Source: Escherichia coli (GTDB taxonomy: Bacteria > Pseudomonadota > Gammaproteobacteria > Enterobacterales > Enterobacteriaceae). Taken from it: DNA of 64,000 nt. The stretch lies in NCBI RefSeq assembly GCF_003018115.1, contig NZ_CP027457.1; one strand, given 5' to 3'. Each line of letters begins with the position of its first letter. The first letter of the stretch is position 1. Made by a program: the position numbers and the translations under genes. The notes below the pieces were generated by a model. The model ran no database searches and was not told the origin of the DNA. It was given only the letters and a program-made list of their open reading frames with translations. Of the stretch, positions 1 to 45,348 are shown piece by piece.

Positions 1-857
1 TGGTTCACAACGGTATTGAATACGGCGATATGCAGCTGATTGCTGAAGCCTATTCTCTGCTTAAAGGTGGCCTGAATCTTTCCAACGAAGAACTGGCACA
101 GACCTTTACCGAATGGAATAACGGTGAACTGAGCAGCTACCTGATCGACATCACCAAAGATATCTTCACCAAAAAAGATGAAGACGGTAACTACCTGGTT
201 GATGTGATTCTGGATGAAGCAGCAAACAAAGGTACGGGCAAATGGACCAGCCAGAGTGCGCTGGATCTCGGCGAACCGCTGTCGCTGATTACCGAGTCTG
301 TGTTTGCACGTTATATCTCTTCTCTGAAAGATCAGCGCGTTGCCGCGTCTAAAGTTCTCACTGGCCCGAAAGCGCAGCCAGCAGGCGATAAGGCTGAGTT
401 CATCGAAAAAGTTCGTCGTGCGCTGTATCTGGGCAAAATCGTTTCTTACGCCCAGGGCTTCTCTCAGCTACGCGCAGCGTCTGAAGAGTACAACTGGGAT
501 CTGAACTATGGCGAAATCGCGAAGATTTTCCGTGCTGGCTGCATCATCCGTGCGCAGTTCCTGCAGAAAATCACCGATGCCTATGCCGAAAATCCGCAAA
601 TCGCTAACCTGCTGCTGGCTCCGTACTTTAAGCAAATTGCCGATGACTACCAGCAGGCGCTGCGTGATGTCGTTGCTTATGCGGTACAGAACGGTATCCC
701 GGTTCCGACCTTCTCTGCGGCAGTTGCCTATTATGACAGCTACCGTTCCGCTGTTCTGCCTGCGAACCTGATCCAGGCACAACGTGACTATTTCGGTGCG
801 CATACTTATAAGCGCATTGATAAAGAAGGTGTGTTCCATACCGAATGGCTGGATTAA
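1..857 (+). CDS. gnd: 6-phosphogluconate dehydrogenase (decarboxylating), C-terminal part; 5' end lies outside the window
   Basis: Open frame runs from the window edge ([21 protein letters not shown]...) to the stop at 855-857; translation recognised as Gnd C-terminal region. Confidence 0.93.
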
Positions 858-4107: not shown

Positions 4108-6185
<2,078 letters not shown>

Positions 6186-21190: not shown

Positions 21191-21361
21191 TTCCTGAACT
21201 TCAGAATCATCTTGCTGCTGCTTCGATTCAGCAAGGATAAAGGGTATGATAGTGAAAAGGGATAAAAGCATTGTCATCTGCGGCAGCTATGAGTAATGTT
21301 GGCCCTAACGAATAGCGGTTGCTTAAACGAATCCGACTCTCACATTATCAGGGGTATAAAA

Positions 21362-21691
21362 ATGGAAACTACCAAGCCTTCATTCCAGGACGTACTGGAA
21401 TTTGTTCGTCTGTTCCGTCGTAAGAACAAACTGCAACGTGAAATTCAGGACGTTGAGAAAAAGATCCGTGACAACCAGAAGCGCGTCCTGTTGCTGGACA
21501 ACCTGAGTGATTACATCAAGCCGGGGATGAGCGTTGAAGCAATCCAGGGCATCATCGCTAGCATGAAAGGTGACTATGAAGATCGCGTTGACGATTACAT
21601 CATCAAAAATGCCGAGCTCTCCAAAGAACGCCGCGATATCTCCAAAAAGCTGAAAGCTATGGGCGAAATGAAAAACGGCGAAGCGAAGTAA
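21362..21691 (+). CDS. yeeX: UPF0265/DUF496 family protein
   Basis: ORF 21296..21691; start at [18 protein letters not shown]... (109 aa). Confidence 0.88.
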
Positions 21692-21702
21692 TTCCTGTTT
21701 TA

Positions 21703-21732
21703 TTCAATGAGGGTTGCCCGGCAACCCTCATT
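21703..21732 (+). terminator. Stem-loop downstream of yeeX
   Basis: Inverted repeat gagggttgcccggcaaccctc; T-run is imperfect. Confidence 0.5.
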
Positions 21733-21791
21733 GCTCATTGATTCTTTTCTGTGTATCACAGTCATCATTCCCATCTGATAACCTATCGAAA

Positions 21792-21968
21792 TTAGCGACA
21801 GACATCTTCTGTATGAAGCAAGGCAAAAAGTTCTGCAACTCTATTGTTATTAACCGCACTGGTTACTAACACGTTGTGCGATCCAGCTTCCCGTAACCAA
21901 ACTTTCACCAAAGATATTTCTTCCATGCTGGCTAAATCTGCTTTGGTGACTACTCCAATGATCGGACG
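21792..21968 (-). pseudogene. Remnant of a EutP/PduV-family small GTPase gene (C-terminal about 58 codons only)
   Basis: Minus-strand frame RPIIGVVTKADLASMEEISLVKVWLREAGSHNVLVTSAVNNNRVAELFALLHTEDVCR*; resembles the C-terminus of EutP (RQIAVISKTDM...). No N-terminal P-loop region is present. Confidence 0.4.
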
Positions 21969-22149
21969 TTAACACGAGGAAGTCTGGCTATTCCACAATG
22001 CCATCTTCTTTCGTAATGGATTGAGAATGCTGGATTTTTAATTATATTACGCGCAGTATTAATCGTGTAAATGTTTTGCGGTCAGCAACGGTGGGGGATC
22101 CATTGTTCTGTTCAATGAATACCATCATACAATTGAATCAGGAGTCGGT

Positions 22150-22695
22150 ATGATGATTTTGGTGACGGGGGGCGCACGGAGCGGGAAGAGTCGCCACGCA
22201 GAGGCGCTTATTGGAGACTCTTCACAGGTTCTGTATATCGCCACCTCGCAAATCCTTGATGATGAGATGGCTGCACGGATAGAACATCATCGGCAAGGCC
22301 GCCCGGCGCACTGGCGCACGGTGGAGCGCTGGCAACATCTTGATGAATTAATTCATGCAGACATTAACCCGCATGAAGCTGTGTTGCTGGAATGCGTTAC
22401 CACAATGGTGACTAATCTGTTGTTTGATTATGGCGGAGATAAAGACCCTGATGAATGGGATTATCAGGCGATGGAACAGGCGATTAATGCTGAGATTCAG
22501 TCGTTGATTGCTGCCTGCCAACGTTGCCCCGCAAAGGTTGTATTAGTGACTAACGAAGTGGGAATGGGGATTGTGCCGGAGAGTCGTCTGGCACGTCATT
22601 TTCGTGATATTGCCGGGCGGGTAAATCAGCAGCTGGCCGCTGCGGCGAATGAAGTGTGGCTGGTGGTTTCGGGTATTGGAGTAAAAATCAAATGA
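22150..22695 (+). CDS. cobU: Adenosylcobinamide kinase / adenosylcobinamide-phosphate guanylyltransferase
   Basis: 181-aa ORF with P-loop GGARSGKS. Confidence 0.93.
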
Positions 22696-23435
22696 GTAAA
22701 TTATTTTGGGCGATGCTCTCTTTTATTACGCGTCTGCCTGTGCCGCGTCGCTGGTCCCAGGGACTGGATTTCGAGCATTATTCTCGCGGTATTATTACTT
22801 TTCCTTTAATTGGATTATTGCTTGGCGCGATTAGCGGGCTGGTTTTCATGGTGCTGCAGGCATGGTGTGGCGTACCACTGGCGGCACTGTTTAGCGTGCT
22901 TGTGCTGGCGCTGATGACCGGGGGATTCCACCTGGACGGCCTCGCCGATACCTGTGATGGCGTATTTTCTGCACGTAGCCGCGATCGCATGTTGGAAATC
23001 ATGCGTGATAGCCGTTTAGGCACCCACGGCGGTCTGGCATTGATTTTTGTTGTACTGGCAAAGATTCTGGTGTTAAGCGAGTTGGCTCTGCGTGGCGAAC
23101 CGATCCTTGCATCGCTGGCGGCAGCATGTGCGGTCAGCCGCGGGACTGCCGCATTATTGATGTATCGTCATCGTTATGCCCGGGAAGAAGGGCTTGGCAA
23201 TGTATTCATTGGCAAAATTGATGGGCGACAAACCTGCGTCACACTCGGCTTGGCCGCTATTTTTGCTGCCGTATTATTGCCGGGTATGCATGGTGTGGCT
23301 GCTATGGTGGTGACGATGGTGGCGATTTTCATCCTCGGTCAGCTTCTCAAACGTACGCTGGGCGGGCAAACCGGCGATACGCTGGGAGCTGCTATAGAGC
23401 TTGGTGAACTGGTCTTCCTGCTGGCACTGCTATAA
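22692..23435 (+). CDS. cobS: Adenosylcobinamide-GDP ribazoletransferase (cobalamin synthase)
   Basis: ORF 22656..23435; start at [18 protein letters not shown]... (247 aa); ATGA overlap with the cobU stop. Confidence 0.92.
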
Positions 23436-24590: not shown

Positions 24591-25523
24591 ATGCGTCGTG
24601 TAAATATTCTTTGCTCATTTGCTCTGCTTTTTGCCAGCCATACTAGCCTGGCGGTAACTTATCCATTACCTCCAGAGGGTAGCCGTTTAGTGGGGCAGTC
24701 GTTTACTGTAACTGTTCCTGATCACAATACCCAGCCGCTGGAGACTTTTGCCGCACAATACGGGCAAGGGTTAAGTAACATGCTGGAAGCGAACCCGGGC
24801 GCTGATGTTTTCTTGCCGAAGTCTGGCTCGCAACTCACCATTCCGCAGCAACTGATTTTGCCCGCCACTGTTCGTAAAGGGATTGTGGTTAACGTCGCTG
24901 AGATGCGTCTTTATTACTACCCACCAGACAGTAATACTGTGGAAGTCTTTCCTATTGGTATCGGCCAGGCTGGGCGAGAAACCCCGCGTAACTGGGTGAC
25001 TACCGTTGAACGTAAACAAGAAGCTCCAACCTGGACGCCAACGCCGAACACTCGGCGCGAATATGCGAAACGAGGGGAGAGTTTGCCCGCATTTGTTCCT
25101 GCGGGGCCCGATAATCCCATGGGGCTGTACGCGATTTATATTGGCAGGTTGTATGCCATCCACGGTACCAATGCCAATTTTGGTATTGGGCTCCGGGTAA
25201 GTCAGGGCTGTATTCGTCTGCGCAATGACGATATCAAATATCTGTTTGATAATGTTCCTGTTGGGACGCGTGTGCAAATTATCGACCAGCCAGTAAAATA
25301 CACCACTGAACCAGATGGCTCGAACTGGCTGGAAGTTCATGAGCCGCTGTCGCGCAATCGTGCAGAATATGAGTCTGACCGAAAAGTGCCATTGCCGGTA
25401 ACCCCATCTTTGCGGGCGTTTATCAACGGGCAAGAAGTTGATGTGAATCGCGCAAATGCTGCGTTGCAACGTCGATCGGGAATGCCTGTGCAAATTAGTT
25501 CTGGTTCAAGACAGATGTTTTAA
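24591..25523 (+). CDS. ldtA: L,D-transpeptidase (YkuD domain; links Braun lipoprotein to peptidoglycan)
   Basis: ORF 24588..25523; signal peptide, YkuD catalytic region with HGT...SQGCIRL motif; the K-12 erfK homologue. Confidence 0.9.
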
Positions 25524-25548
25524 GAGCGTTGGTAATTAGAAAGCAAAA

Positions 25549-25568
25549 AGCCTGCTAGAAAGCAGGCT
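25549..25568. terminator. Bidirectional terminator between ldtA and tRNA-Asn
   Basis: Hairpin agcctgctagaaagcaggct flanked by A-run and T-run. Confidence 0.7.
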
Positions 25569-25578
25569 TTTTTGAATT

Positions 25579-25654
25579 TGGCTCCTCTGACTGGACTCGA
25601 ACCAGTGACATACGGATTAACAGTCCGCCGTTCTACCGACTGAACTACAGAGGA
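25579..25654 (-). tRNA. asnV: tRNA-Asn (GUU)
   Basis: 76-nt reverse complement of the canonical E. coli tRNA-Asn, ending CCA, anticodon loop cuGUUaa. Confidence 0.95.
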
Positions 25655-27986: not shown

Positions 27987-28062
27987 TGGCTCCTCTGACT
28001 GGACTCGAACCAGTGACATACGGATTAACAGTCCGCCGTTCTACCGACTGAACTACAGAGGA
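27987..28062 (-). tRNA. asnU: tRNA-Asn (GUU)
   Basis: 76-nt sequence identical to the other tRNA-Asn copies. Confidence 0.95.
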
Positions 28063-29810: not shown

Positions 29811-29886
29811 TCCTCTGTAGTTCAGTCGGTAGAACGGCGGACTGTTAATCCGTATGTCACTGGTTCGAGTCCAGTCAGAGGAGCCA
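29811..29886 (+). tRNA. asnW: tRNA-Asn (GUU)
   Basis: 76-nt canonical tRNA-Asn on the plus strand, inverted relative to the other three copies. Confidence 0.95.
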
Positions 29887-44191: not shown

Positions 44192-44267
44192 TGGCTCCTC
44201 TGACTGGACTCGAACCAGTGACATACGGATTAACAGTCCGCCGTTCTACCGACTGAACTACAGAGGA
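44192..44267 (-). tRNA. asnT: tRNA-Asn (GUU)
   Basis: 76-nt canonical tRNA-Asn; 5'-flank conserved with the copy at 25579-25654. Confidence 0.95.
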
Positions 44268-45258: not shown

Positions 45259-45348
45259 GGAGAGATGCCGGAGCGGCTGAACGGACCGGTCTCGAAAACC
45301 GGAGTAGGGGCAACTCTACCGGGGGTTCAAATCCCCCTCTCTCCGCCA
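45259..45348 (+). tRNA. serU: tRNA-Ser (CGA)
   Basis: 90-nt GGAGAGATGCCGGAGCGGCTGAACGGACCGGTCTCGAAAACCGG...CTCTCCGCCA with long variable arm, anticodon CGA. Confidence 0.93.

Follow-up and report, generated by a model that had tools for sequence, protein, structure and literature searches.

The cob-pdu region of Salmonella enterica (cbiA-P, cobUST, pocR, pduF, and pduA-X) holds the same gene families, with the same neighbourhood logic, as the Escherichia coli locus described here. Salmonella has 17 cbi genes, its pduV is followed by pduW and pduX, and yeeX lies beyond the pdu operon there, too. In E. coli K-12 MG1655, cobU and tmaR (= yeeX) are 13.3 kb apart and the CP4-44 cryptic prophage is annotated between them, with yeeH, IS5, yoeG/H, yoeA::IS2, yeeP, isrC, flu, yeeR-W including cbeA/cbtA, yoeD, and yoeF. 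The same cobU-tmaR interval is occupied in ExPEC by PAI-cobU, an island of 27 to 43 kb (PMC7545054), and a gene-order table of STEC O182/O156 lists yeeA, a hypothetical gene, yoeF, and cobU as consecutive genes (PMC5359238). Gain and loss of pdu have been described within ST372, whose pdu genes were reported to be only 77.5% identical to the LT2 operon (PMC9997745). Our literature search found no paper joining the pdu operon with cobUST in E. coli, nor pdu with CP4-44 there.

Here, we analyzed a stretch of 64,000 nucleotides of E. coli DNA (contig NZ_CP027457.1; hereafter the window), in which dacD, sbmC, yeeA, and yeeX are followed by a gap of 458 bp and then by cobU, cobS, cobT, ldtA, a tRNA-Asn gene, and nac. 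The gap is bounded on the left by tmaR (DUF496; 21364-21691, plus strand), which is annotated at the equivalent site in K-12 and six other genomes, and on the right by cobU (22150-22695, plus strand), the first gene of the kept cobUST cluster. The earlier note on this DNA had estimated the spacing at about 460 bp, had placed CP4-44 with flu, yeeR-W, and a toxin-antitoxin pair between these genes in K-12, and had taken the junction as a prophage-free configuration. The spacing and the K-12 layout are as it said, and no prophage or island is present: the gap has no homology to the interior of the K-12 island, and flu, yeeR-W, cbeA/cbtA, and the IS fragments that mark CP4-44 and PAI-cobU are missing. 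Nor is the prophage-bearing junction equally short, given the 13.3 kb in MG1655. The junction is not an empty CP4-44 site. With a rough probability of 0.85, the 458-bp gap is a non-functional scar of a pdu operon deletion, with cobUST kept.

The minus strand of the gap contains an open frame of exactly 58 codons from stop to stop (21968 to 21795, with the stop codon at 21794-21792), RPIIGVVTKADLASMEEISLVKVWLREAGSHNVLVTSAVNNNRVAELFALLHTEDVCR. Its likeness to the C terminus of EutP/PduV GTPases, already noticed from the letters, was borne out by profile searches. The match to Pfam PF10662 (PduV-EutP) scores 40.6 bits, above the gathering score of 21 (E value, 2.8e-10), and spans profile positions 90-142 of 143; NCBIfam TIGR02528 (EutP) is matched with an E value of 1e-8 over positions 90-141 of 142, at a score of 35.5 that is far under the curated cut-off of 138. 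The frame is the C-terminal third of the EutP/PduV family and no chance match. At the same time, it is a gene fragment and not a family member gene: only profile positions 90-142 are covered, a stop codon lies directly upstream, and the first 89 codons are missing, among them those for the P-loop, which reads GPSQCGKTS in intact Escherichia PduV. The remnant (21792-21968, minus strand, stop codon included) aligns codon for codon with residues 90-147 of the intact 147-aa PduV of Escherichia whittamii and pdu+ E. coli, and its identity to the C terminus of intact Escherichia PduV is 76 to 90%. Compared to the nearest intact allele, 6 codons differ nonsynonymously and 3 synonymously, a count that says nothing about selection because intact PduV C termini vary a lot too. 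Its position is orthologous as well, since in E. whittamii and in four pdu+ E. coli strains pduV is the last pdu gene and convergent with tmaR. RefSeq labels the equivalent 177 bp "EutP/PduV family ... incomplete; missing N-terminus" and, in thousands of genomes, has the equivalent sequence as a EutP/PduV family gene or partial gene. A pduV tail without the GTP-binding half is best read as dead.

Within the remnant, the ORF list contains an ATG-initiated frame of 44 codons (21792-21926, minus strand), which is probably not a real gene. Its naming in RefSeq is inconsistent: it is a "propanediol utilization protein" in PapM-32-1 (L002, 6101-6235), a "DEAD/DEAH box helicase family protein" in GPEC1201 (L010, 1601-1735) and OkiPb01675, and an "ethanolamine utilization protein" in further genomes, and others annotate the region as a 177-bp pseudogene. 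A K-12-type yoeF end, 86% identical to the window remnant, was also met at about 5090-5513 of a 5.5-kb contig labelled as a Planctomycetota MAG (L003, JADFIX010000334.1). The rest of that contig is high-GC and unrelated; it looks like a chimeric or contaminated assembly and was discarded.

Where does the remnant come from? The earlier note had turned to Salmonella as the reference. Its proposal of a pdu origin stands, but Salmonella is not needed, for intact pdu genes are found at the same site in about 12% of complete E. coli genomes and in E. whittamii. A scan for related loci by peptide patterns, with one genome per species, returned 4 loci, with no Salmonella, Citrobacter, or Klebsiella among them. 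E. whittamii has an intact 147-aa pduV as the last gene of its pdu operon (pduQ-S-T-U-V), and a DNA search with pduT-U-V located the operon at the same site in 645 of 5426 complete E. coli genomes (12%). In Z1323HEC0462 (locus L007 in the coordinates below), the order is tmaR, pduV to pduA on the opposite strand, pduF, pocR, a cobalamin riboswitch, an ORF of 145 aa, and cobUST. The Escherichia operon ends at pduV, without pduW or pduX, and it is therefore a pduV and not a pduX remnant that adjoins yeeX, at a distance of 100 bp.

The window has the same flanking genes as the intact pdu loci of Z1323HEC0462, E148, CX07, and E. whittamii and is collinear with both of their ends. By blastn against Z1323HEC0462, window positions 21301-21968 correspond to L007 928-1595 (97.6% identity) and window positions 21962-22700 to L007 19253-19991 (97.8%). 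The two matches overlap by 7 bp in the window (21962-21968), where the deletion junction coincides with the sole surviving copy of a 7-bp repeat, TCGGACG, and about 17.66 kb of the pdu+ locus is missing between them: pduV codons 1-89, pduU to pduA, pduF, pocR, the cobalamin riboswitch, and most of the 145-aa ORF. Of the latter, the window retains the last 17 codons and the stop codon (RTLTRGSLAIPQCHLLS; 21963-22016, plus strand). The loss of pdu with retention of cobUST is in agreement with the earlier note.

That note had, furthermore, spoken of a loss of the cbi-pdu neighbourhood. Both are gone, but the cbi loss is a separate and older event than the present pdu polymorphism in Escherichia, because even pdu+ Escherichia have just a cbiG fragment between the riboswitch and cobU; the 17 cbi genes of Salmonella, like its pduW and pduX, are absent from their alleles. 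The fragment is the 145-aa ORF. It matches positions 1-125 of 351 of the cobalt-precorrin-5A hydrolase family NF004463 (E value, 1.3e-19) at a score far below the cut-off of 546 bits, as an N-terminal fragment and not as a CbiG; it was identified by NCBIfam only, with no Pfam match. An ORF of 144 aa represents it in E. albertii, E. marmotae, and other Escherichia, and in strain HS the PGAP annotation has a partial "cobalamin biosynthesis protein" for it. The residues kept in the window (129-145) lie outside the CbiG-homologous stretch.

Among the 5426 complete E. coli genomes surveyed, the K-12-type junction of a pduV remnant with an island is by far the most common allele (4166 genomes, 77%), and the pdu+ allele with pduV-pduA, pduF, pocR, the B12 riboswitch, the cbiG fragment, and cobUST accounts for the 645 genomes (12%) named above. 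An uninterrupted gap of the window type was found in 530 genomes. This number includes 138 genomes, e.g., 19KM1776 and ECNB21-M121, with a longer scar of 868 bp (junction, L007 1717/18967) in which pduV survives as codons 50-147 and the cbiG fragment starts at about codon 33; the 458-bp scar proper is present in about 300 to 390 genomes (6 to 7%). About 85 genomes were left unclassified. The 458-bp gap of the window is 100% identical to that of PapM-32-1, isolated from a baboon in The Gambia.

K-12 carries the same pduV tail: the last 58 to 60 codons of yoeF (b4538) are at the same position and in the same orientation beside tmaR. Alignment of the junction to K-12, as called for by the earlier note, places both flanks with a 4-bp overlap and recovers this remnant. 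The K-12 tail runs on into island DNA, first about 70 bp and then the IS66-type fragment yoeD, and 12.7 kb of CP4-44 follows, whereas the window has no island, a remnant that is 2 to 3 codons shorter, and a different allele lineage. Compared to the pdu+ allele, K-12 is collinear further than the window on both sides, keeping 9 bp more of pduV (codons 88-90, MNH) and about 117 bp more of the cbiG fragment (L007 19136-19252). PAI-cobU (GI-cobU) with Hma and Fbp, which is absent from the window, sits in the same interval behind the same type of pduV junction, as seen in its carrier IHE3034. Relative to the pdu+ allele, the segment replaced in K-12 comprises record positions 2066061-2078748 (ends at L001 8021-8061 and 20749-20750); annotated CP4-44 (2066020-2078748) is exact at the yoeF end and takes in about 40 bp of cbiG-fragment sequence at the cobU end. 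The pduV truncation of the island allele (codon 88, in the 4166 genomes; K-12 L001 20750-20762) is only 9 to 13 bp away from that of the 458-bp scar (codon 90). Neither a hotspot motif nor extended homology was found near the two breakpoints, and, the two alleles appearing to be of separate origin, their closeness is an unexplained coincidence.

In the flanks, a neighbor-joining tree and a table of variable sites group the window with the ECNB21-type scar allele and the pdu+ alleles. The island alleles make up a clade of their own, in which K-12 (phylogroup A) and IHE3034 (B2) share about 8 private substitutions within the 270 bp beside tmaR; none of them is present in the window. Over these 270 bp, the window is 92.6% identical to K-12 and 96.7% to pdu+ alleles, and over the 458-bp gap it is 99.8% identical to an 868-bp-scar allele. 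The closest relationship is to ECNB21-M121, whose 868-bp gap, once a 410-bp segment flanked by two perfect TCGGACG copies is taken out, differs from that of the window by a single SNP outside this segment. A two-step path is therefore the simplest, with ECNB21-M121 as the one closely matching 868-bp-scar genome on which it rests. In our model, the ancestral Escherichia order is tmaR, facing a convergent pduV to pduA, then pduF, pocR, the B12 riboswitch, the cbiG fragment, and cobUST. A first deletion of 17.25 kb from the pdu+ allele probably produced the 868-bp scar, which is still found in the 138 genomes, and replication slippage or microhomology-mediated deletion between the TCGGACG copies 410 bp apart probably then produced the 458-bp scar. 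In total, the window lineage lacks everything from pduV codon 89 to cbiG-fragment codon 128, which takes in the entire microcompartment operon as well as pduF, pocR, and the riboswitch. Left over are the hairpin between tmaR and pduV, a dead pduV tail of 58 codons, 17 codons of the cbiG ORF, and about 130 bp upstream of cobU. Imperfect homology at the deletion endpoints (ACGAGG..AAG..CTGGC) was considered as well and rejected, with a local alignment score of 18 against 16.5 ± 2.0 for shuffled sequences, 141 of 500 of which were as good.

Other origins of the junction have to be weighed against this path. That the window might represent the ancestral, never-occupied integration site of CP4-44 is suggested by the K-12 flanks, which on joining almost reconstitute the window with an overlap of 4 bp. 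This reading is refuted and has next to no probability left: K-12 still has bases of the pdu locus that were lost in the window (pduV codons 88-90 and some 117 bp of the cbiG fragment) and therefore cannot derive from a window-type site. Neither end of the K-12 island resembles a site-specific att junction, with IS fragments near both. On the yeeX side, the IS66-type fragment yoeD starts about 70 bp inside the junction; on the cobU side, yeeH, a pseudogene directly adjoining IS5, starts 8 bp beyond it, and an IS4-family fragment is found there in strain HS. The search for att-like direct repeats that the earlier note had proposed revealed none in or beside the gap, the repeat families in 21300-22400 being short and at chance level only, and no tRNA gene or integrase is in or adjoins the 458 bp. 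It is also imaginable that the window descends from an island-bearing chromosome of the CP4-44 or PAI-cobU type, from which the island was later deleted together with 9 bp of the pduV remnant and about 117 bp of the cbiG fragment. Sites resembling the 7-mer flank the island in K-12, which makes such a deletion mechanistically possible, and the pduV breakpoints of the two alleles are 9 to 13 bp apart, a closeness expected by chance at about 5% for an endpoint confined to the 180- to 270-bp remnant and at about 0.15% for one free to lie at any point of 17.6 kb. Against this, the island alleles are a tight clade (junction identity of 97.9% or more among the rows sampled from the 4166 genomes), their private substitutions are all absent from the window, and the window is closer to pdu+ and 868-bp-scar alleles than to K-12. 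We consider descent from an island allele improbable.

More serious, but still unlikely, is a direct origin from the pdu+ allele by a single deletion of 17.66 kb, with CCGGGCG in pduV and TCGGACG in the cbiG fragment as its endpoints and no 868-bp intermediate. Both 7-mers are present in pdu+ alleles at exactly the breakpoints of the window, and the junction version GACCGGGCG of GPEC1201, Kylling, and FWSEC0008 keeps the pdu+-type left copy. The flanks of the window, however, differ by one SNP in 458 bp from the scar of ECNB21-M121 and by 9 to 10 substitutions in the left 270 bp from the sampled pdu+ alleles, and perfect repeats 410 bp apart should give rise to slippage far more readily than repeats 17.7 kb apart that agree in 5 of 7 positions. 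The remnant might also have been kept for a function. It could encode a small protein (the 44-aa ORF or something like YoeF), or it could act on tmaR as an antisense element or a terminator. In its support, a tail of 58 codons or more survives in nearly all E. coli, the K-12 annotation treats yoeF as a CDS, and RefSeq calls the 44-aa ORF a protein. Yet the whole GTP-binding half is absent, the names given to the 44-aa ORF are inconsistent and other genomes have it as a pseudogene, and retention is more simply explained by the position beside the tmaR terminator; retention for a function is thus very improbable.

The deletion scar with cobUST kept, which we prefer, occurs in two versions of the 458-bp junction, GATCGGACG in the window, PapM-32-1, A34, and ET120 and the version of GPEC1201, Kylling, and FWSEC0008 given above, on at least three flanking haplotypes. 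E. coli recombines. Finding one junction on several haplotypes points to a deletion that recurred at the 7-bp repeat or to flanks exchanged by recombination. That the 458-bp scar arose more than once via the same 7-bp repeat is a tentative idea. If true, decay of pdu would follow a repeatable ladder from pdu+ over the 868-bp scar to the 458-bp scar, which could serve as a lineage marker and might reflect selection to tidy the region upstream of cobUST once control by PocR and the riboswitch was lost.

The deletion also bears on the control of cobUST. The cobalamin riboswitch (Rfam RF00174) is at L007 18477-18652 in the pdu+ allele, inside the deleted interval, and was not met upstream of cobU in 21200-22400; indeed, no RNA family matched this region at an E value of ≤1. 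A local cobUST promoter would be needed because the PocR/riboswitch-controlled cob promoter was deleted, and we infer that it must lie in the roughly 130 bp upstream of cobU. Six-frame translations of 22017-22149 gave nothing recognisable. A sigma-70-like site, TTGAGA-16-TATATT (22021-22048, plus strand; 10 of 12 consensus positions), is found about 100 bp upstream of cobU and is a candidate for the cobUST promoter by consensus match only: the promoter scan yielded 2 sites against 1.3 expected, so that the site is statistically indistinguishable from chance, and its sequence is also present in K-12 and in the pdu+ allele. At the other end of the gap, a perfect 14-bp inverted repeat, CAATGAGGGTTGCC/GGCAACCCTCATTG (21705-21733), folds as RNA with −21 kcal/mol (z score, −5.5) on the plus strand and forms the same hairpin on the minus strand; the repeat is conserved across all alleles, those of K-12, pdu+ E. 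coli, and E. whittamii among them. Since a T-run is lacking, the consensus terminator scan passed it over. It is probably a bidirectional terminator common to the convergent tmaR and pduV.

Beyond the junction, the window contains four tRNA-Asn genes and one tRNA-Ser gene (25579-25654, 27987-28062, 29811-29886, 44192-44267, and 45259-45348). The asnV-asnU and asnU-asnW spacings have the K-12 values (2408 and 1824 bp), and the asnW-asnT distance is only 14.4 kb. At these tRNAs, ExPEC carry the HPI of 30 kb and the pks island of 54 kb (PMC7545054); there is no room for either in the window, and the whole stretch is island-poor. Between ldtA and tRNA-Asn/nac, PapM-32-1 (L002, 9997-12458) and Z1323HEC0462 (L007, 22979-32247) have an island with a sugar PTS and a DeoR regulator, and more. 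It is absent from K-12 and from the window, where ldtA ends at 25523 and tRNA-Asn starts at 25579, with 25524-25578 between. For window positions 10000-34999, the best match among complete E. coli RefSeq genomes is 98.6%, and the lineage of the window seems to be without a representative among complete genomes.

The 458-bp scar is an ordinary, already annotated variant. Databases and the literature already cover PAI-cobU, the yoeF remnant, and the presence or absence of pdu in E. coli; current understanding is unchanged. The practical consequences are small. The locus is nevertheless a useful typing marker of E. coli with four states (pdu+, island, 868-bp scar, and 458-bp scar), and a "prophage-free" junction is not necessarily an ancestral empty site. 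For the strain itself, the loss rules out formation of the Pdu microcompartment and growth on 1,2-propanediol. Both the K-12 island with Ag43 and CbtA-CbeA and the ExPEC island with Hma and Fbp are absent as well, and the strain keeps cobUST for B12 salvage, without the promoter controlled by PocR and the riboswitch.
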